Shown: positions 16,958 through 25,763, numbered from the stretch's first letter. The stretch: 32,000 nt of DNA from Synechococcus elongatus PCC 6301 (GCF_000010065.1 NC_006576.1:1731522-1763521); one strand, 5' to 3'. A program made the numbers and translations. Notes: a model not told the origin generated them from the sequence alone.

Positions 16958-18538
16958 ATGGCTCGACGATGGGTCCACAAAAAACGCAACAGCAGCGATC
17001 GCGGCTATATCCTAGGCATCGTAATTGTCCTTGCCTTAGTTCTAGGGGTTAGTGTCGCTGCCCTAGCGCTCCGGAGTGCTGGTGAAAAAGCTGGGTCGAG
17101 CCAGCGGAATAGTGTTGATCTGAGCCTTTCAGCAGCAGAAATCGGTCAAGACCGCCTCTTTGCTAATCTCAATGGAGTTTTTGGACCTTATGCCTCAGCG
17201 GCGTTCCCTGATACAACGACAGGAGTTGCAACGACCGCAACTCGTTCTTGGGCACAACTCAGAACAGTTCTGACTTCGGGAGGGACAGCTAACGCTAATC
17301 CCTGCTCAACTCCAACTCCAGACTTTAATATCCTCACGACAGTTGGAACGAGTACTTTAGGAAATAGTGGTCAGCTGAGTTGGCAGTTGGTTAGCTATAA
17401 GCCTCAGGCTAACAATACAGCCCGGGTCGTCATGCGGGGTTTCCAAGGTACAAGTAGCTCAAACATACGAACAGAAGTTGAGCGAACCTACGCCACACGT
17501 CGAGTAACAGCCTTTAATACTGCTTCTACGTTTCCTGCACTGCTGACGGGCAGTGTGACACTAGGGAACAACGATGTAATTTCTGTCGTAGATCCAAATA
17601 CAGGACAATCTGTTTGTAACGCTAATGTTTACTGTCTAACTTGTACCGGTATTAATAATTTTGGCCAGAACCCTCAAAGTGTTGTTGATGGTGACTTGGT
17701 TTATCGTGCAACAACACCCGACGCCGATGGGAACTCTCTACTAAGTAATGGCATTGACTGGAATCAGAATACTAATTTTCCAGCTCCTAAGGTATGGCCA
17801 GGTTATCCAACAATCCCTATTCCTTTTTCTGCAGTAACTAACTTGCAAATTGCAGCTCTTTTTGCGGCACCTTCTTCTACTCTAAATCCTGGGTTCTACA
17901 ATGACTTAGGGGGTAGGCTAAGCCCAAGTAACCCGCTAGATTTACGGCTGAATCCAGATATCACAGGAAGTATCACTCTTCCGCGCTCAACTGATGTTAT
18001 TGGAGCAAATGGAGCCTACAACTATTTAGTCCGGGATGTAACAACCAACGGTAATGAGTTTATTCGCGTCAATACGCCTGGCTGCGAAGGTGTAACCCCC
18101 GTCCCAACTTCAACCTGTAAGCCAGTTTATCTATATGTCGTGGGTGACGTGAATGCTGATTTCTTGCATACAAACTCGCCCACTGGGACTACAACGGTTA
18201 ATGAGCCGGAAGACTTTGTGATTTTTGGTCGGCCTGGTGACTACACTGCCTCTGGCATTGATCAGACCATTACTATCAATGGTGGCTCGCGAGTAACCAG
18301 TGCTTTAGTGGTCGCTCCCCGCGCACGAGTAGGCGTCAACGGGGGGTCTAACAACCCAGACTTTTACGGTGCTGTCTGGTCAAAGGAATGGAATGGCTCT
18401 AGTAGTAATAACGTTGAGATTGTTGTTCCCCTCGACATTGCTGAGAGAGCAAGAGAATTCTACAATTCACCCCGTCCAACGGTCCTTCGCCTGAACTTCC
18501 TAGATATTTGGAGAGCAGGGGGTACGTTTAATCCATGA
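16958..18538 (+). CDS. Large PilX_N-like pilus protein, module A (526 aa)
   Basis: The basic N-terminus is followed by G|YILGIVIVLALVLGV, a pilin-like hydrophobic helix without Glu+5, as in the PilX_N family. Six Cys are conserved with the paralogue at 20096. The C-terminal region (VYLYVVGDV...ITINGGSRVTSALVVAPRARVGVNGGSNNPDFYGAVW) suggests repetitive beta-strands. Confidence 0.7.
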   Translation: MARRWVHKKRNSSDRGYILGIVIVLALVLGVSVAALALRSAGEKAGSSQRNSVDLSLSAAEIGQDRLFANLNGVFGPYASAAFPDTTTGVATTATRSWAQLRTVLTSGGTANANPCSTPTPDFNILTTVGTSTLGNSGQLSWQLVSYKPQANNTARVVMRGFQGTSSSNIRTEVERTYATRRVTAFNTASTFPALLTGSVTLGNNDVISVVDPNTGQSVCNANVYCLTCTGINNFGQNPQSVVDGDLVYRATTPDADGNSLLSNGIDWNQNTNFPAPKVWPGYPTIPIPFSAVTNLQIAALFAAPSSTLNPGFYNDLGGRLSPSNPLDLRLNPDITGSITLPRSTDVIGANGAYNYLVRDVTTNGNEFIRVNTPGCEGVTPVPTSTCKPVYLYVVGDVNADFLHTNSPTGTTTVNEPEDFVIFGRPGDYTASGIDQTITINGGSRVTSALVVAPRARVGVNGGSNNPDFYGAVWSKEWNGSSSNNVEIVVPLDIAERAREFYNSPRPTVLRLNFLDIWRAGGTFNP

Positions 18539-19128
18539 AGAGAATTCATAAACGATCGCGCCGGTCGCAGTTAGGCTTCTCACTGGTCGAGATCCTAGTC
18601 GCTGCTATTCTGACTGTCCTCTTAGCTCAAGCAACTGCGGCTGCTTTAAGAATTTCAGTCCAAACTCAAAATCGGGCCAGCACTGAAAACTCTTTTGAAA
18701 ATGCCATTGTTGCTGATTTAGAGCAAGTTAGAGCTATCAATCGAAATCTTTGCCGTAATCCTAACTTTGATCGCACTGCAACAACTTCTCCTAACAACCT
18801 GAGCTATGGTCCTTTTGGTGACTGTGCTGGAACTATCTTTCAGGAAAGATGCCGGGCAACGGGCACCACACCCGGATTTGGTAATCTTCTCCAAGCGCAA
18901 GTCCCTAATTTTACGAGCCAGACTGTGATTGTGAATGGACAGACTTGGACTATATCTCGACAAACTCTTGTTCCCGATCGTCCTCTCAACTCAGGAGATG
19001 CCGGCTATGCAGAATCGAGTCAGTCAGTATTGAAGGTTAGATATGACTTGACTAGAGGAAGTACAACAATTGCACCGGCTTTTGTCACCGAGTTTGTTCC
19101 TGATGCAGTAGGCTCGTGTCAAGGATAA
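18535..19128 (+). CDS. Type IV minor pilin, PilV-like, module A (197 aa)
   Basis: Class III signal: MKRIHKRSRRSQLG|FSLVEILVAAILTVLLA, with Gly-1, Phe+1 and Glu+5. The start overlaps the upstream stop (ATGA). It has four Cys. Confidence 0.8.
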   Translation: MKRIHKRSRRSQLGFSLVEILVAAILTVLLAQATAAALRISVQTQNRASTENSFENAIVADLEQVRAINRNLCRNPNFDRTATTSPNNLSYGPFGDCAGTIFQERCRATGTTPGFGNLLQAQVPNFTSQTVIVNGQTWTISRQTLVPDRPLNSGDAGYAESSQSVLKVRYDLTRGSTTIAPAFVTEFVPDAVGSCQG

Positions 19129-19273
19129 GTTAATTAACCCTAGTATTAAACTTTCTACTAGATTAAAGGTTTGCCCTTTCTAGCATGTCCATAGCATTCG
19201 TTTAATTCATTCTTTCATCCTGAAACTCAGTAGTCAGTATGACTCGTAGCCTAGCAACAGGAGAACTATCGAG

Positions 19274-19966
19274 ATGAGTACGCAACGCCTCTTTTGGCGA
19301 TGGTTTTTACAGCGTCATGGTGAAGCTGGTATCACTCTAGTCGAGGTTCTAGTTGCGGGTATTATTGGCGTGTTGGTTGTTTTGGCGGGCGGTTATGCGT
19401 TAGTGACCAACCTCCGAGTCGATCGCGAACTGTCATCAGCCGCAATTCAACGCAATCTTCAAACGAGAGCTTTGGAGTACATCAGTAGTGAAGTCCGTCA
19501 AGCCAACTTAATCTACGCGCCGAATAACACACCGAACCTGTGCAGTAGCTATACGAGAGTCTTGGGGCTGCAAACAACGGTGAATGGTAGCAATCGCAAT
19601 ATTGTTTATGCGGTTGGCAATGCCAACAACCCATGGCGGGGCGATCGCGTGCTATATCGCTGTGGCCCGCCAATCGATACCTCCACTGGACGTTACAGCT
19701 CAGGTAGCGACGTTGAAGAAGTGATTTTGGATGGCTTGAGCAGCGCTACCCTGGTGGCTAATAGCAATGGATGTGGTGCTGTCCCGACGGCCTACGCTGT
19801 TAGCAGCAGCAATACAGCAGGCCTGCGTGCTTTTTTCCGTACTGCCAGTAACGTCGTGAACACTAATTCCGCACAAATTCTGCTGGGGATGCAAATTGAT
19901 CGAGGTATTCAAGGAAATGCAACGAGTTGTGCAAGCATTGTTGCTTCCAATCGTTCGACCCCTTGA
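19274..19966 (+). CDS. Type IV minor pilin, PilW-like, module A (230 aa)
   Basis: Class III signal ...HGEAG|ITLVEVLVAGIIGVLVV, with Ile+1 and Glu+5. AGGAG lies 8 nt upstream of the ATG. The PilW-like N-terminal region is LVTNLRVDRELSSAAIQRNLQTRALEYISSEVRQAN. Confidence 0.75.
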   Translation: MSTQRLFWRWFLQRHGEAGITLVEVLVAGIIGVLVVLAGGYALVTNLRVDRELSSAAIQRNLQTRALEYISSEVRQANLIYAPNNTPNLCSSYTRVLGLQTTVNGSNRNIVYAVGNANNPWRGDRVLYRCGPPIDTSTGRYSSGSDVEEVILDGLSSATLVANSNGCGAVPTAYAVSSSNTAGLRAFFRTASNVVNTNSAQILLGMQIDRGIQGNATSCASIVASNRSTP

Positions 19967-20095
19967 TAAATGAGTAATGCTAAGTATTTAGCGATTTTTG
20001 ATCGCCTAGAGAATCTAGTGAACTGTACTTGTCTACCGCTAGCAGCAAAAATTCACTAAGATTTGGGTATATTCGTCTCTGGTGCTTAGGCTGCA

Positions 20096-21583
20096 GTGAT
20101 GGTGAGACCTATCCAACTTGTGCGGGCGTGGTTGATCAGGCGATCGCCTAAGGCACGGTACCGTAAGCCCGGTGGGTACATTTTGGCGACCGTCATTGGT
20201 TTGAGCCTTATTTTGGCGGTTGGCATCACCTCAGTCAGCATCCGAGCTGCTGCCGAGCGAGCAGGTAGTTTGCAGACAACGACGATAAATCTTTCTCAAT
20301 CCGCAGCCGAAATTGGGATCGAGCGCTTGTATGCCGTTCTCAACAACGGACCTTATCAGTCATTAGCAAGCAAAAGATTTGATAGAGATTCAGACACAAC
20401 TACTTGGACAACAGAGATCAGTAATATCAACTCGGCAGCCAATCAGAACAGTAACAACGTAAGAGGGTGTGGTATTACCCCAGCAGTTACCACCCAGCAG
20501 CAGCTAAATGACTTGACAGCCGGGACTACAACAATTGCTTCTACTTCAAACAATATCTGGTGGAGACTGAAGAGCTATTCCCCACCGGATCTAACAACTA
20601 ATCCAAAAACCCCTGCAACTATCGTGATGCAAGGTGGAACAGGTACTAGCTCTGGTGATACCTCAGGTCGAAGAACCGAAATTGAGAAAAAGTTTTTCCC
20701 TGAGAATGGAACCCCCATTCTTCGCAATGCACTAGGAAATGCTGCACTCTTTGCCGGGTCAATTGACCTTGGCAACAATGATGTCCTCTCCAGTGATGCT
20801 ACTCAGGGCTGCGCCAACGTCTATTGCCGGGATTGCCAAACTGGGCAAGGTCCAAACAGTACTGTTGAAGGGGCCGTTATTACCTTGCCAGCTTCAGTTC
20901 CATTCCCGGAACCAAAAGTCTGGCCATCTTCTGGAGCAACCCAAGCGAATGGTTTCTACGACCGTAAAGGTCAAGCGCAACCTTTTGGAACTCCCCCACT
21001 CTTACGAGTTGCAGATTTTCCTAATACAGATGCCAATAAGTTTATCAACATTCGAGTTGATGATATTCCTGCCAATTTAAAAGTCATTAATGACAGTTGT
21101 GGGGGAGCTATCAGCACTCCTGATCGATTGCCTGTCAATACCAATTCCGGCTGTAAGCGAGTTGCAATTTACTTTGAAGGCAATATCACTGGACCTATTA
21201 CTCAACTTTATGCAGACCTTCCTACGGCTACCTTTCTTCCTTACCCAGAAAATCTAGTTCTTTATGGCTTGCCTTCCACTGCCACCGGCAATCAAAACAT
21301 TACCTTAAGTGGCAACAGTGACAAAATTCAAGGAGCAGTTATCGTAGCTCCCAAAGCCCGTGCTGGGATTAACGGTGGTCCGCCGAAAAGTCGTACTAAC
21401 CCAGATGTTTATGGGCCACTCTATGTGGGAATTTGGGATCGCTCTAACAGTAATAACGCAGAAATTGTCGTTCCTTATGATATGTTTGCCCGAATTGATG
21501 GCTTAATTCCCAATCTCAATGAGATCACGACTTTAGTTTCACTGCGGAGTGCAACATCATGGCAAAAGGGAGGCAATCTCTAG
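20096..21583 (+). CDS. Large PilX_N-like pilus protein, module B (495 aa), paralogue of 16958-18538
   Basis: G|YILATVIGLSLILAVG helix. Colinear similarity to the module A protein is visible along its length (LSQSAAEIGIERLY, W.L.SY.P, LGNNDV, ANVYC..C, FPEPKVWP, VAPKARAGINGG, SNNAEIVVP). The start is GTG 20096 or ATG 20099. Confidence 0.7.
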   Translation: MMVRPIQLVRAWLIRRSPKARYRKPGGYILATVIGLSLILAVGITSVSIRAAAERAGSLQTTTINLSQSAAEIGIERLYAVLNNGPYQSLASKRFDRDSDTTTWTTEISNINSAANQNSNNVRGCGITPAVTTQQQLNDLTAGTTTIASTSNNIWWRLKSYSPPDLTTNPKTPATIVMQGGTGTSSGDTSGRRTEIEKKFFPENGTPILRNALGNAALFAGSIDLGNNDVLSSDATQGCANVYCRDCQTGQGPNSTVEGAVITLPASVPFPEPKVWPSSGATQANGFYDRKGQAQPFGTPPLLRVADFPNTDANKFINIRVDDIPANLKVINDSCGGAISTPDRLPVNTNSGCKRVAIYFEGNITGPITQLYADLPTATFLPYPENLVLYGLPSTATGNQNITLSGNSDKIQGAVIVAPKARAGINGGPPKSRTNPDVYGPLYVGIWDRSNSNNAEIVVPYDMFARIDGLIPNLNEITTLVSLRSATSWQKGGNL

Positions 21584-22152
21584 TGGGATTGAGTTTTCTT
21601 ACCAAGCCTTACAAATCCCTTGGCCGGCGGCGTCGCTCTCAACGAGGCTTTAGCATAACTGAAGTTATCGTTGCTGCCATCCTGACCATTTTGATCGCTC
21701 AGGCAACAACTGCTGCTTTAGTGGTTAATGCTCGAACTCAGGGCACCTCTGTCGAAGAGTCGCAATTTCTGAGGATTGTTAACCAAGATGTTGAGCGAGT
21801 CCGAGATGTTGCTAGTGCACTGTGTAGAAGCTCAACTTCTCCCTTGAGCTACAACGGTTGCAATCCTCCAACTAATCCCAGCTTGAAACAACGCTGTGAC
21901 AGTACAAGTTCTAATGCTGGGCTGGCACAATTACTTTCAAGTAGCCTACCCGCTTTCTCTGACAATATATTTACAAGTAAAAATCGTTCGACTGTGACGA
22001 TCACTAGAACTTCCTCTATCCCGACTGTCCCGGGTGCCTCATCTTTCTCTGTGTTACGTCTGGCCTATACTTCATCTGGTCTATCACCGAATTTATCGTA
22101 TGTGACGGAAGTGGTGCCGGACGTCGTCGGTTGGTGCTCAACTGCCATTTAA
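21559..22152 (+). CDS. Type IV minor pilin, PilV-like, module B (197 aa)
   Basis: Class III signal ...RRRRSQRG|FSITEVIVAAILTILIA. The start is either ATG 21559 (25-nt overlap with the upstream gene) or GTG 21583 (overlapping its TAG). It has four Cys in the same order as the module A paralogue, and the C-terminus YVTEVVPDVVGWC compares with FVTEFVPDAVGSC. Confidence 0.8.
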   Translation: MAKGRQSLVGLSFLTKPYKSLGRRRRSQRGFSITEVIVAAILTILIAQATTAALVVNARTQGTSVEESQFLRIVNQDVERVRDVASALCRSSTSPLSYNGCNPPTNPSLKQRCDSTSSNAGLAQLLSSSLPAFSDNIFTSKNRSTVTITRTSSIPTVPGASSFSVLRLAYTSSGLSPNLSYVTEVVPDVVGWCSTAI

Positions 22153-22194
22153 AAACCTTCATTCAACTGATCACTAGTTTTTACAGGCATATCC

Positions 22195-23427
22195 ATGAAG
22201 AGCGATAACTTAAGTGCCTTGCTAAGAATCTATTGGGCTCTAGTACCCAAGGATGAAGCGCGATCGCAGCAAGGGTTTACGATTACCGAGTTATTGGTCG
22301 CCAGTACCATTGGTATCATTGTGATTTTGGGCGGAGGCTATCTGCTTAAGACTAATCTCGATGTCGATCGTGTTAGCTCTACCAACTCAGCTCAAAGGAA
22401 TATTCAAAATCGAGCCTTAGATTTTATTAGTAATGAAATTAGGCGGGCCAATGCTGTTGTGAGTTCAAGCTCTCGTTCCTGTAACGGAGTAACGCCAGTC
22501 CTCAGTATTCGAGTACCTGATCCGAGCAACTCTACGAGCACTTCCGCAGTCAGAATTATCGACTACGCCGTTGCTACTCCAGCTGCTCCTTGGCAAACGA
22601 CTAGTAATGCTCGGGCGATTTATCGATGTGGCCCAGAGATTAACAGTTCTGGTCAATATGATTTCACTTCTTCCACAACCGTGACTGACCTGCTCGTTGA
22701 TCGAGTTGCAAATGCTAACCCTACGGCAAGCGGTGTTTGTAGCAATCTTAATGCCAATGCAATTACTTCACCTTTTTCGGGCTCAGCAACAACTAGTGGA
22801 ACAAACGGTTTAGTTGTTCGCTACGAAGCAAGTGATCCGCGATCGGCTCAAGTCTTGATTGCCTTCTTGCGAAACGTAGGGAATGGAGGTTCTCCAGGTA
22901 CCGACTGCGTCACGAATATTGTTGCTGCTCGCGCGATTGATCCTGCCAATATTGCGTCTAGCCCATCGCCTAGCCCTACGCCGACACCCACGCCTACGCC
23001 GAGCCCATCTCCTACTCCGTCACCTAGCCCTACGCCGACACCCACGCCTACGCCGAGCCCATCTCCCACTCCGTCACCTAGCCCTACGCCGACACCCACG
23101 CCCACGCCAAGCCCATCACCTGCGCCGACTCCCGTTTCTATCTCAATTGCCTCAATTTCTGGTGGAGGTAATAACTCAACTGTTGGGCTTAACCTTGGTA
23201 GCCTTAGTTTGCTCGCAGGTGTAACCGGTTTCAGGATTTTTGGTTGCACACAAAACAATAGTACCTGTACACCTTCCACGGGCGGTACGCCGACCTTAAC
23301 TACTTCATCCACTACCCCTACTATTCCAAATATCGACTTGCAAGGTAATAGGAGAGCTTGTTTTACTGCTCAAGCAGTTGGACCTCTCAATATTGTTTTA
23401 GGAACTTCTACTGTGTGCACAAATTAA
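22195..23427 (+). CDS. PilW-like minor pilin, module B, with a Pro/Ser/Thr repeat linker and an extra C-terminal domain (410 aa)
   Basis: Class III signal ...EARSQQG|[18 protein letters not shown]. The first ~250 aa are colinear with the 230-aa module A protein. These are followed by about 58 aa of (S/T)P repeats and a ~95-aa Ser/Thr/Gly/Asn-rich domain with four Cys. Confidence 0.8.
22960..23135 (+). repeat. In-frame 54-bp tandem repeat, about 3.2 copies, encoding [18 protein letters not shown] units
   Basis: Unit starts (AGCCCATC...) fall at 22960 (a 42-nt short copy), 23002, 23056 and 23110 (partial, diverging). Copies 2 and 3 differ at only a few bases by eye. Confidence 0.9.
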
Positions 23428-23438
23428 GTTCTATTCTT

Positions 23439-24317
23439 GTGAATTTTGACTTGAAGCCTCTAAATTTGATAAAAACTATTTATGATTTCAGTCGACAAGA
23501 GGTTCTTTTAACTGAAACTGAGTTGTTTCAGTTACTCCAAAGCTTTGAGGACTGTCCACCTCGTGAGAGTCTACAAAGTTCCTCTTTTCAGTGGAGGAAC
23601 CTGTTGTTTTCTCAGGTGTCAGCGGGTAATACGACTTACTGGTATTCCCAACAAATACCGATTCAAATCAATTCAAATTTAAGTGGTATTGCCAACCATC
23701 TAGCTGTAGAGTCTTCAACAGGGAAGCCAGATATTTTATATTGGCGAATCCTTGATTTTTTAAGCCCTGAAAAGCTACAACAGCTTTGGAATTATTTACT
23801 AACTGCCCGATCGCAATTTAATCCGGCTCACAACTCCGCAGGTTTGAATAACTATCGACAATCTCTTTTTACTGCTCCTCCTCCTGAAATTTATTCCGAG
23901 ATCAGTGAAAAGATTTTAGGTGCTTTGATACCAATTGCCGATGAGCTGCCCAATTCCTCACAAGAAATTGGCGAGATAGAGATGCAAATAACAGCTCACA
24001 ACGATGGTCATTATTACAAAATTCATAATGATAACGGCAGTCCTGATACAGCTACACGTTTTCTCACTTACGTTTACTACTTCTATCGACAACCCAAACC
24101 ATTTACTGGTGGCGAGCTGCGACTGTATGAACTTGCTATCAAAGATGGCTTTTACGTTGCAGGCGATCGCTATCAAGACATTGAACCGCTACACAATAGC
24201 CTGATTGTTTTCCCAAGCCACTACATGCACGAAGTTCTACCGATTCGATGTCCTTCTCAGCGATTTGAGGATAGCCGCTTTACAGTTAATGGTTGGATTC
24301 GAGTTGCTATTGACTGA
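23439..24317 (+). CDS. 2OG-Fe(II) oxygenase, prolyl-4-hydroxylase-like fold, with an uncharacterised N-terminal half
   Basis: The C-terminal half carries the double-stranded beta-helix signature: KIHNDN (HxD), RFLTYVYYFY, GGELRLYE, distal His in SHYMHEVLPI, and RFTVNGWI (2OG-binding Arg). The start is uncertain: TTG 23358 (70-nt overlap with the upstream gene), GTG 23439 or TTG 23451. The gene is very AT-rich. Confidence 0.75.
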   Translation: MNFDLKPLNLIKTIYDFSRQEVLLTETELFQLLQSFEDCPPRESLQSSSFQWRNLLFSQVSAGNTTYWYSQQIPIQINSNLSGIANHLAVESSTGKPDILYWRILDFLSPEKLQQLWNYLLTARSQFNPAHNSAGLNNYRQSLFTAPPPEIYSEISEKILGALIPIADELPNSSQEIGEIEMQITAHNDGHYYKIHNDNGSPDTATRFLTYVYYFYRQPKPFTGGELRLYELAIKDGFYVAGDRYQDIEPLHNSLIVFPSHYMHEVLPIRCPSQRFEDSRFTVNGWIRVAID

Positions 24318-24321
24318 TTTT

Positions 24322-24888
24322 CTAGCTTGAAGTTCGACAGCTACCGCTTTGCACAGTACCAGTTCTGACTAGCCCTAGGGGTCGTGCAAGAACGACACAG
24401 CGTTGTACTGGCGTTAATGTACTACTCAAGCGAATTTCTTGGGTTGCATTACCTGTCCAGTAAACATTGCCGCTGGGATATGCGAGTACGTTTGAACTTA
24501 GATTCTGAGCTACTGTGATTTGATTTCTAGCAAAGCTACGACTACGTAAAAGACAATTCCCCGTGGGTGCTGCTGTTGTATCACGGTTAATTCCACCAGC
24601 AACAAGATCAGTGGCTTTCAAGGTACAGGTTCGATTTAACCGCTGAGCTTCACGTTGCATCTCTAGAATGGCTGACTGTACTTCTGAAGTAGCTTGATCT
24701 AGCTCTTGCTGACCCAAAAAACCAGCCACGCTAGGTCCTGCGATCGCGGCTAGAATCCCTGCCACAATTAAAACGACTAAGATCTCAGTGATTGTAAAAC
24801 CTTGCGATCGCACTGCTCGGCGTAAATGAGCATAAAGTAAACGCTGCTCTAAGACGAGTTTTAATCGTGACATTGCTAACCTTTCCAT
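24322..24888 (-). CDS. Type IV minor pilin, FimT/FimU/GspH-like (188 aa)
   Basis: Class III signal ...RRAVRSQG|FTITEILVVLIVAGILAAIAGPSVAGFL, followed by QQELDQATSEVQSAILEMQREAQRLNRTCTL, typical of the GspH/FimT family. The start is ATG 24888 or 24873. Confidence 0.8.
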   Translation of the reverse strand: MERLAMSRLKLVLEQRLLYAHLRRAVRSQGFTITEILVVLIVAGILAAIAGPSVAGFLGQQELDQATSEVQSAILEMQREAQRLNRTCTLKATDLVAGGINRDTTAAPTGNCLLRSRSFARNQITVAQNLSSNVLAYPSGNVYWTGNATQEIRLSSTLTPVQRCVVLARPLGLVRTGTVQSGSCRTSS

Positions 24889-25388
24889 CCCAACGCGATC
24901 GCAGCTTACCTCTATTCTCGCAAACGATGCAGGGATTAGCTTGCCCTAGGCGAGCGATCTTGTGCCAAAGACCGATCGCCTGGCCTTTCCTGATCAATAC
25001 TCAGTGACTCTCTAACTATAGTCAGCGCATGATCAACAGAGGCTACCTAGTAAAAAAGATAGGACTGGTGTAGTCGAATAAGGATCAGCTTATCTTCAAC
25101 AACAACTCACTACGCTCAAACATTGCTTAGCTACTCTCTGAGACTGTCGCGATCGCCTTCAACCCCTGCCAGAGTAGTACTGCCAATGTCTGAATTCTTG
25201 TTGTGTCTACCGCTTCTCCTGCGCAGAGAGTAGATCAGTGATCGACCCCAAGAACTCTCTGGTATTCCAAAGAAACCAGTAATCTCCTATCCATTAGTGA
25301 TAGCGATCGCTGTTGGGGCGGATTTCTCGCCTGCCAGCATCAAGGCCCGAGTGTCAGAGTAGAAGGAGAACCCTTCAGAGGCAGACTG

Positions 25389-25763
25389 ATGACCGACGTA
25401 CTGCCCACGATCGAACTGTTTGATGGCATCGCTGAAGAACTCGATAACGTCAGCTTGCGGCGCGATCGCCAATCCGGCACCCGCAATGTCTTGCTCCGCT
25501 TCCGTGCCCTCAAAGCCCTTGATCGCTTCAATAGTTTCCGAAGCCGCTTTTCCAAAGCGATTCGCCTCACCGATAGTGAAGGGGCAATCGAACTTTGGCC
25601 CGACTCCTCCAAGTTGGTGTTTGGCGGTGATGACGGCGATGAACTGGACCGCGTCGAGTTTGTCGTCCCGATCGACAATGAAGACCACTGGCAACGCTTC
25701 ATGCGATTTATGGAGCGCTACGCTGCGGCCAATGACATGACCTACGGCGATCGCCAGGCATAA
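25389..25763 (+). CDS. psb28: Photosystem II assembly factor Psb28 family protein (Psb28-2-like paralogue)
   Basis: 124 aa. Contains the family signature HWQRFMRFMERYAAANDM and an N-terminus (PTIELFDGIAEELDNVSLRRDRQSGTRNVLL) that matches my memory of the Psb28-2 subgroup. Confidence 0.85.
   Translation: MTDVLPTIELFDGIAEELDNVSLRRDRQSGTRNVLLRFRALKALDRFNSFRSRFSKAIRLTDSEGAIELWPDSSKLVFGGDDGDELDRVEFVVPIDNEDHWQRFMRFMERYAAANDMTYGDRQA

Follow-up and report, generated by a model that had tools for sequence, protein, structure and literature searches.

A PHD-type oxygenase encoded after a proline-rich minor pilin in Synechococcus elongatus: a candidate hydroxylase of proline-repeat linkers

In the genome of the cyanobacterium Synechococcus elongatus PCC 6301, a gene for an Fe(II)/2-oxoglutarate (2OG) oxygenase directly follows a gene encoding a prepilin-type protein with a long (Ser/Thr)-Pro linker, an arrangement which raises the question of whether the enzyme hydroxylates the linker of its neighbor. 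The window analyzed here is the whole stretch of 32,000 nucleotides (NC_006576.1:1731522-1763521) carrying both genes, and a previous sequence-only reading of it had proposed the oxygenase as a candidate pilin prolyl hydroxylase. The open reading frame (ORF) delimited in that reading, 23358-24317 on the plus strand, is present and encodes 319 amino acids when read from the TTG start of the longest ORF. Its product is 100% identical to ABB58510.1, i.e. Synpcc7942_2480 of S. elongatus (hereafter 2480, the other loci being numbered likewise), deposited at 300 amino acids and named either “prolyl 4-hydroxylase, alpha subunit” or “2OG-FeII oxygenase superfamily protein”. The annotation of the enzyme class is about twenty years old and the oxygenase itself is not new; the novelty lies in its membership of the 2483-2481 minor-pilin unit and in the recognition of a family that spans the cyanobacteria and whose N-terminal modules are swappable. 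In the searched literature, 2480 is not discussed in the main text of any paper and appears in two supplementary tables, and prolyl hydroxylation of a bacterial pilus protein is not reported. Our tentative answer, which we regard as possible rather than probable, is that 2480 hydroxylates Pro-repeat linkers, its local client being the linker of 2481; the comparative data lend moderate, not decisive, support to the hydroxylation of proline-rich linkers. The pilin prolyl hydroxylase proposal is thus retained in part: the prolyl-hydroxylase-type relatives of the enzyme, its linkage to 2481 and the recurrence of the arrangement in a metagenomic contig speak for it, whereas the lack of pilins at most homologous loci and the lack of a signal peptide speak against it.

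The motifs on which the oxygenase assignment had been based (KIHNDN, GGELRLYE, HEVLPI and RFTVNGWI) are all present in the correct register, and the predicted facial triad and 2OG-binding arginine (H204, D206, H272 and R288, in the numbering of the 300-aa form) are invariant in an alignment of 2480 with 27 homologs. The affiliation to 2OG-FeII_Oxy_3 was confirmed by a PF13640 match of 67.5 bits against a gathering cut-off of 27 (E-value 2.1e-18, residues 209-315 of the 319-aa ORF). The AlphaFold2 (AF2) model of 2480 has a mean pLDDT of 81, reaching 85-95 in the catalytic domain, and retrieved 278 PDB matches at an E-value ≤1e-3 with Foldseek, the 50 matches listed being 2OG-oxygenase-type structures. 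Ranks 1 to 33 among these 50 are filled by the Pseudomonas EF-Tu prolyl 4-hydroxylase PPHD, human PHD2/EGLN1 or the Dictyostelium Skp1 prolyl 4-hydroxylase PhyA, with best E-values of 6.7e-11 (4iw3, TM-score of 0.70 on the target), 6.5e-10 and 6.9e-10, respectively, at an identity of just 20-23%. PiuC, the Phytophthora prolyl 4-hydroxylase (P4H) 6iuq (3e-7) and Tpa1 (1e-6) rank lower, between 1e-7 and 1e-6, and, apart from 6iuq, every P4H among the 50 listed matches belongs to the PHD/PPHD/PhyA group. When the family profile was compared to all PDB sequences, PhyA was retrieved at 2.4e-10 (6t8m), its HxD motif lining up with that of 2480, and PPHD at 0.014 (4iw3), and no collagen, plant, algal or viral P4H was found at an E-value ≤1. 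The NCBIfam PiuC model (NF003974/PRK05467) matches residues 131-315 of the 319-aa ORF below threshold, with 22.2 bits against a cut-off of 143 (E-value 8e-5). No signal peptide was seen by inspection and 2480 has no hydrophobic or transmembrane (TM) segment, its maximal Kyte-Doolittle value over 19 residues being 0.91 versus 2.25 in the pilin 2481. Based on the profile and fold rankings, the sub-threshold PiuC score and this absence of a hydrophobic segment, 2480 is predicted to belong to the P4H superfamily as a soluble enzyme of the PHD type, and not to be a close relative of plant-type P4Hs. The analogy with plant and algal P4Hs drawn in the sequence-only reading consequently gives way to a PHD-type kinship, which weakens the “plant-type P4H” label and leaves peptidyl-proline hydroxylation unweakened; the residue modified by 2480 would be a peptidyl proline. 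Two other candidates, an enzyme of the membrane or periplasm and a hydroxylase of free proline, were rejected on account of the affiliation to PF13640 and to the PHD-like group and of the absence of any hydrophobic segment.

The linkage of 2480 to the pilin genes is seen both in the gene arrangement and in published expression data. Gene 2482 shares its first 25 nt with the end of 2483 and is followed by 2481 after 42 nt, and 2480 lies on the same strand and starts at -13 or +11 nt relative to the stop codon of 2481, depending on its start codon, so that the contiguity or overlap with the linker-pilin gene reported earlier is upheld. In a published RNA-seq study, 2480, 2481, 2482 and 2483 all belong to the response groups DF5 and O-A4, the latter being down in PilB::Tn5, while 2484 and 2485 belong to DF3/OT3 (2485 also to O-A1), 2486 to O-A1 and 2479 to none, the two minor-pilin sets of the window therefore differing in their response group (Simkovsky et al. 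2022, PMC9260433). Such a shared DF5/O-A4 grouping would be expected if 2483-2480 were an operon, and indicates co-regulation of the oxygenase with 22195-23427. Together with the compact spacing, it suggests that 2480 is the last gene of an operon-like 2483-2482-2481-2480 minor-pilin unit. The circadian parameters of 2480 (peak at 13.8 h, amplitude 0.18) and 2481 (14.8 h, 0.22) are similar, and both genes are non-circadian according to the high-confidence call of the authors (Taton et al. 2020, PMC7125226).

The recurrence of this association was analyzed on a comparative set of 160 loci harboring 2480 homologs (80 from genomes and 80 from metagenomes), to which the window was added (161). The family counts more than 1000 matches at 90% clustering, occurs in at least 546 species genomes and is essentially cyanobacterial. 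A pilus protein adjoins the oxygenase in three of the 161 loci (the window, L107 and L092), and all three pilus proteins carry P-(S/T) repeats. In L107, a metagenomic contig, the gene located 91 nt upstream of a family member, on the same strand, codes for a homologous prepilin which combines two (TP)n linkers and a DUF4082 domain; the two genes are separated by a perfect hairpin of 14 bp (TTGTACGGGGAAGG/CCTTTCCCGTACAA). The N-terminus of this prepilin is lost at the contig end, and it has an NRAxDFIxxEvR helix in common with 2481; its full-length relatives P0126-P0131 display PF07963 and the GFTLIELLVAM motif. Because of this truncation, a strict prepilin-motif regular expression missed L107 among the 160 loci, which was recovered by profile search and fragment homologs. 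When the seven pilus proteins of S. elongatus were searched in all loci by tblastn with the SEG filter, no match was obtained, a result attributed to minor pilins diverging too fast for BLAST. Four of the L107 prepilin homologs (P0127-P0130) stop after the pilin domain and have no Pro-repeat linkers, and P0128, the only linker-less one for which the context was fetched (loci L164-L167), lies in a four-gene set with no adjacent oxygenase. Similarly, P0125, the sole homolog of the 2481 pilin domain in 5.8 billion proteins (n = 1), is linker-less and has no adjacent oxygenase. On sequence grounds, linker and oxygenase thus appear to occur together in both pilin lineages, that of 2481 and that of L107. 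The L092 pilus protein is a 591-aa 2483/RntA-like protein with a C-terminal (SP)n repeat, convergent with the family member.

The association also extends to other proline-rich surface proteins. In two Coleofasciculus-like loci (L015:6372-8621 and L082:2618-5054), the oxygenase is fused to N-terminal MauE-like 5-TM and CxxC thioredoxin-like domains and follows, 15 nt (L015) or 223 nt (L082) downstream, a gene for a PqqD-like-TM-(TP)n-Cys-rich protein; the oxygenase of this fusion was placed on the cytoplasmic face according to the positive-inside rule (by inspection), and the arrangement may constitute a membrane-tethered modification module. In about 20 Nostocales loci and in L150, the gene following the oxygenase belongs to the XDD4 or “cistern” family and encodes an exosortase/PEP-CTERM surface protein, the Pro-rich linkers of which are of the (AP)n, (TP)n or another type. 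Grouping the loci by single linkage into “synteny contexts” was of no use, 101 of them falling into a single group, and neighbor gene families were used instead. Pro-rich genes occupy 26 of the 293 positions directly adjacent to the oxygenase versus 10 of 1249 elsewhere, corresponding to 7/103 versus 6/622 gene families (odds ratio 7.5, p = 8e-4) and to 5/101 versus 6/622 when the Nostocales are collapsed to one (p = 0.011), an enrichment of Pro-rich exported neighbors that is suggestive, the test having been devised after the pattern was seen and relying on crude gene calls. The cases with a Pro-rich neighbor are scattered across the oxygenase tree. These data show that the family is repeatedly, although in a minority of loci, associated with surface proteins carrying P-(S/T/A) repeats, a link newly recognized here. 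The phylogenetic association with pilins envisaged in the sequence-only reading holds for such Pro-repeat-bearing surface proteins, whereas for pilins as such it is nearly non-existent elsewhere, being absent within 5 kb at the remaining 158 of the 161 loci. As a side observation, the Nostocales slot lying between the oxygenase and grx-gshB (L005, L017, L021, L033, L035, L037, L043, L067, L074, L075 and others) is occupied by PEP-CTERM proteins which have in common a signal peptide, a sorting signal and long linkers of the (AP)n/(TP)n type, around central or N-terminal domains of at least four unrelated families; it resembles cassette-like domain replacement at one locus, and repeat lengths vary greatly among strains.

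According to the mechanism that we propose, members of the 2480 family would catalyze, throughout cyanobacteria, the 4-hydroxylation of cell-surface proteins at prolines located in disordered linkers made of Pro-(Ser/Thr/Ala) repeats, the local client in S. elongatus being the 58-residue (S/T)P linker of the pilin-like protein 2481. Hydroxylation would take place on the cytoplasmic side while the polypeptide is unfolded, either prior to export or in the course of it, and the variable N-terminal domain of the enzyme could serve as a targeting or docking module. Both the linker as substrate and the timing relative to export are inferred.

Beyond the post hoc character of the enrichment test, several observations weigh against this proposal. 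Its main obstacle is topology: 2480 looks cytoplasmic and the prepilin linker is exported, probably co-translationally, and the model therefore needs the enzyme to act on a nascent or pre-export chain. About 85% of the 160 homologous loci have neither a Pro-rich nor a pilin neighbor and present housekeeping surroundings, and the window and L107 were the only ones of the 161 loci in which a combined motif and profile search detected prepilin-type genes at a distance of up to 5 kb. On the oxygenase tree, the S. elongatus enzyme has a long branch (0.29, the median being 0.04) and is not affiliated with any particular clade. The L092 adjacency may be incidental, since P0106, which is closely related to the L092 enzyme, has no pilus gene in its surroundings. 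Co-transcription is doubtful at L107, owing to the intervening hairpin, and in the Nostocales pairs, which are 370-940 bp apart. The closest relatives PPHD, PHD2 and PhyA hydroxylate single defined prolines and not repeats, and the repeat-hydroxylating collagen- and plant-type P4Hs are more distant from 2480. The catalytic domain is strongly conserved, 45 columns of the full-length alignment being invariant from one order to another, which would also fit a single conserved non-pilin substrate. Finally, the 2480 insertion mutant (UGS 17A4) is wild-type-like for biofilm formation, the 2481 mutant being a “sporadic vessel-dependent biofilmer” (PMC9260433), and the transformation fitness of the 2480 mutant, -0.98 +/- 0.54 with a false discovery rate (FDR) of 0.10, is not significant, the value for 2481 being -0.35 with an FDR of 0.064 (PMC7125226, Supplementary Data 1).

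Many of these points would be expected if the family had a conserved cytoplasmic substrate such as a translation factor or a ribosomal protein, the position of 2480 in a pilin operon then being a by-product of island formation or relocation accompanied by transcriptional hitch-hiking. This explanation is itself a tenable possibility, short of likely. It has precedents in PPHD with EF-Tu, Tpa1/OGFOD1 with uS12 and PhyA with Skp1, and the best structural matches of 2480 are PPHD-EF-Tu (4iw3), PHD2 and PhyA; many homologs are labeled “Tpa1-like” or “SM-20-related” by JGI, and many bear the COG3751 label. It also fits the solubility of 2480 without export signal and the presence of the family in so many species genomes mostly beside housekeeping genes, the usual neighbors being hflX, purH, sppA, the Mg-protoporphyrin methyltransferase gene, grx-gshB and ftsZ. 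The high conservation of the catalytic domain contrasts with hypervariable minor pilins (2481 having a single detectable homolog), and published data on the 2480 mutant reveal no pilus-related phenotype. Conversely, no consistent functional neighbor indicates any particular substrate, the identity to PPHD and PHD2 is low, and the enrichment of Pro-repeat neighbors, the L107 recurrence and the co-regulation with 2481-2483 are left unexplained.

Several known systems can be compared with 2480. PPHD (4iw3/4j25), the best structural match, resembles 2480 as a soluble bacterial enzyme with a single double-stranded beta-helix (DSBH) and an HxD...H...R arrangement, but differs by its 21% identity, its marginal profile score, the absence of an extra N-terminal domain and of any linkage to pilus genes, and by its substrate, one proline in a folded GTPase loop. 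PhyA, the best sequence-profile match among solved structures, and PHD2/EGLN1 have fold matches to 2480 of about 1e-9, but are eukaryotic, target a single proline and show 20-23% identity. Both are cytoplasmic, and the hydroxyproline (Hyp) produced by PhyA is subsequently O-glycosylated; no glycosyltransferase gene is located beside 2480. Tpa1/OGFOD1/Ofd1, the ribosomal uS12 prolyl hydroxylases, match the fold of 2480 over about 225 columns. Tpa1 has two DSBH domains, and the matched PDB chains comprise 533-546 residues against 300 for 2480, which consists of one DSBH and a small unrelated N-terminal domain and therefore does not have the two-DSBH architecture (about 530-650 aa) of the Tpa1/OGFOD1 class. 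The collagen P4H (C-P4H), Chlamydomonas CrP4H-1, PBCV-1 vP4H and Bacillus anthracis P4H have their Pfam superfamily in common with 2480. They hydroxylate prolines within repeats, namely (SP)n, PAPK or collagen-like ones; those of eukaryotes are active along the secretory pathway, in contrast to 2480 with its lack of a signal peptide. The genetic logic of 2480-2481, a modifying enzyme encoded right beside its pilin, is that of Pseudomonas TfpO/PilO and TfpW and of Neisseria PglL. TfpW arabinosylates Thr/Ser in a Pro-rich pilin segment. These enzymes are periplasmic membrane glycosyltransferases or oligosaccharyltransferases, in contrast to the soluble oxygenase 2480.

It is unlikely that 2480 hydroxylates another residue (Lys, Asp, Asn or Arg) or a small molecule, as PKHD enzymes of the PiuC/YbiX type may do. 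The weak PRK05467 match, the presence of PiuC and Shewanella 3dkq among the fold matches and the fact that the substrate is known for no family member would favor such an activity, but the PiuC score lies far below its cut-off, all better matches are protein prolyl hydroxylases and no biosynthetic-cluster neighbors are found.

The TTG at 23358, from which the sequence-only reading had taken the ORF, is an unlikely start, because conservation in the alignment begins in the 300-aa form, at about its residue 15. Translation more likely starts at GTG 23415 (the GenBank model), which overlaps the 2481 stop by 13 nt and is preceded by AGGA 11 nt upstream, or at GTG 23439, 11 nt past this stop. For the same reason, the RefSeq model of 237 aa (WP_231621377.1), which begins at an internal TTG, cuts a conserved domain containing the FxWRN... 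motif (window 23415-23603), and its start is probably mis-called. The earlier description of an unrecognized N-terminal half of about 190 aa requires shortening, as the oxygenase fold starts at about residue 105 and comprises about 195 residues (~106-300) according to Foldseek alignments covering 200-225 columns; what stands is a small domain at residues ~15-80, within the first ~85-100 aa, hereafter type b, without significant PDB or Pfam match. In the AF2 model, it is ordered as helix-strand-helix-helix-three strands, and it is kept in a subset of cyanobacterial homologs with the motif FWVTxxEL...FxWRNF...YWQI. The Foldseek check suggested earlier gave prolyl-hydroxylase matches for the catalytic part and no significant PDB fold for the type b domain (best E-value 0.16, probability ≤0.38), which has no consistent Pfam match either. 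In L107, the family member (L107:2082-3186) carries a ribbon-helix-helix (RHH)-like N-terminus and a coiled coil in place of the type a or type b domains.

These N-terminal modules leave some room, although we judge it quite improbable, for 2480 being an O2/2OG/Fe-sensing regulator in which the N-module binds DNA or a partner and the oxygenase senses or auto-modifies, tuning the expression or assembly of the adjacent surface protein: the L107 homolog begins with the RHH-like segment VTFMLPEDLIHTIDSLALATGKDRTTVVLQALRQ (Pfam RHH_1, E-value 0.007), the order of the 2480 N-domain is winged-helix-like with weak Foldseek matches including MecI and the RecQ winged-helix domain, and local regulators are typically encoded next to their targets, but the RHH match is sub-threshold, both features are statistically unsupported, the commonest N-domain (type a) has no DNA-binding signature, the type b domain has no significant fold or Pfam match and most homologs do not lie beside surface-protein genes.

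Should linker hydroxylation be confirmed, it would represent a new post-translational modification in type IV pilus biology, show that proline-rich bacterial “linkers”, usually viewed as inert spacers, are enzymatically modified, and give a function to an uncharacterized oxygenase family of at least 546 species genomes, almost all cyanobacterial. More broadly, it is conceivable, though doubtful, that cyanobacteria possess a counterpart of the hydroxyproline-rich glycoprotein pathway, in which PHD-type, cytoplasm-facing hydroxylases with interchangeable N-terminal targeting domains modify (S/T/A)-Pro linkers before export (2481, Nostocales PEP-CTERM proteins and others); Hyp-O-glycosylation priming or linker stiffening would then be possible, and 2481 would be the first hydroxyproline-bearing type IV pilus protein. 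The linker hydroxylation hypothesis is directly testable, as PCC 7942 is tractable, a 2480 mutant (UGS 17A4) exists and a mass shift is predicted on a defined 58-residue segment. If the linker is not the substrate, the family nonetheless represents the principal PHD-like enzyme of oxygenic phototrophs, and its real substrate would bear on cyanobacterial O2/2OG sensing.

Table 1. Position in the window of the oxygenase gene, its domains and predicted catalytic residues, and the neighboring pilin genes
Feature	Coordinates	Strand	Description or basis
Synpcc7942_2480, P4H/PHD-type Fe(II)/2OG oxygenase	23415..24317	+	300 aa from GTG 23415; PF13640 match
Small alpha/beta N-domain “type b”, residues ~15-80	23457..23654	+	AF2 pLDDT 76-93; homolog alignments
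Catalytic DSBH domain and its N-terminal helices	23730..24317	+	residues ~106-300; Foldseek, PDB profile search
H204-N-D206, predicted iron-binding HxD of facial triad (KIHNDN)	24024..24032	+	alignment; matches PhyA HxD
H272, predicted distal iron-binding His (HEVLP)	24228..24230	+	alignment
R288, predicted 2OG C5-carboxylate-binding Arg (SRFTVNGW)	24276..24278	+	alignment; role inferred from fold position
Synpcc7942_2481, prepilin-type minor pilin	22195..23427	+	410 aa; pilin domain, (S/T)P linker and ~97-aa 4-Cys C-terminal domain
Prepilin cleavage/methylation motif G/FTITELLV of 2481 (cleavage at the slash)	22273..22299	+	
Strictly alternating X-Pro linker of 2481	22960..23133	+	58 residues (256-313): 29 P, 15 T, 13 S, 1 A; proposed hydroxylation target
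Synpcc7942_2483, RntA paralog, first gene of second minor-pilin set	20096..21583	+	495 aa; 34% identity to 2486, E-value 1e-53
Synpcc7942_2482, prepilin-type protein, RntB paralog	21559..22152	+	197 aa
First minor-pilin set: rntA (2486), rntB (2485), 2484	16958..19966	+	
Synpcc7942_2479 (pilA2), GspH-like pseudopilin	24322..24888	-	convergent; stop 4 nt from 2480 stop

The pilin genes of the window (Table 1) form two tandem paralogous minor-pilin sets, rntA-rntB-2484 (16958-19966) and 2483-2482-2481 (20096-23427), with pairwise identities of 34%, 37.5% and 32%. The rntA and rntB genes are needed for natural transformation (PMC7125226). The pilin domain of 2481 is a paralog of 2484 (residues 11-247, E-value 8e-24), and its N_methyl match falls just under the Pfam cut-off. 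A tandem repeat with a 54-nt unit (22969-23121; 2.8 copies at 94% identity) encodes the linker of 2481, the length of which may therefore differ among strains; an antisense ORF at 22848-23312 with GVGL repeats and a +2-frame ORF at 22883-23224 are artefacts of this repeat. The genes from 16958 to 24888 constitute a low-GC island (~16.5-25 kb) with a G+C content at third codon positions (GC3) of 0.30-0.48, reaching 0.53 in the repeat-linker segment, and 2480, at 0.34-0.36, has the AT-rich composition of the island ascribed to it earlier, versus 0.57-0.66 in the flanking core genes gyrB, miaA, psb28 and argH. The window contains no tRNA gene, and therefore no obvious integration site for the island, and no integrase. 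A promoter and terminator scan of 16.4-25.4 kb retrieved sites no more frequently than in shuffled sequences, and a “terminator” called at 23578-23600 falls within the 2480 ORF. Downstream of the island, two long ORFs on the minus strand (25287-25694 and 25340-25702), most likely spurious, lie antisense to psb28 (25389-25763, plus strand; Pfam E-value 8e-31) and overlap it.

Two minor observations concern the family as a whole. The loci L031 and L042 are labeled in GenBank as Actinomycetota and as a Rhizobium metagenome-assembled genome, yet they have typical cyanobacterial neighbors and are probably mis-binned cyanobacterial contigs. At six loci (L006, L013, L084, L085 and others), a paralog of the oxygenase of about 292 aa lies directly downstream of it, next to purH, as a tandem duplication.

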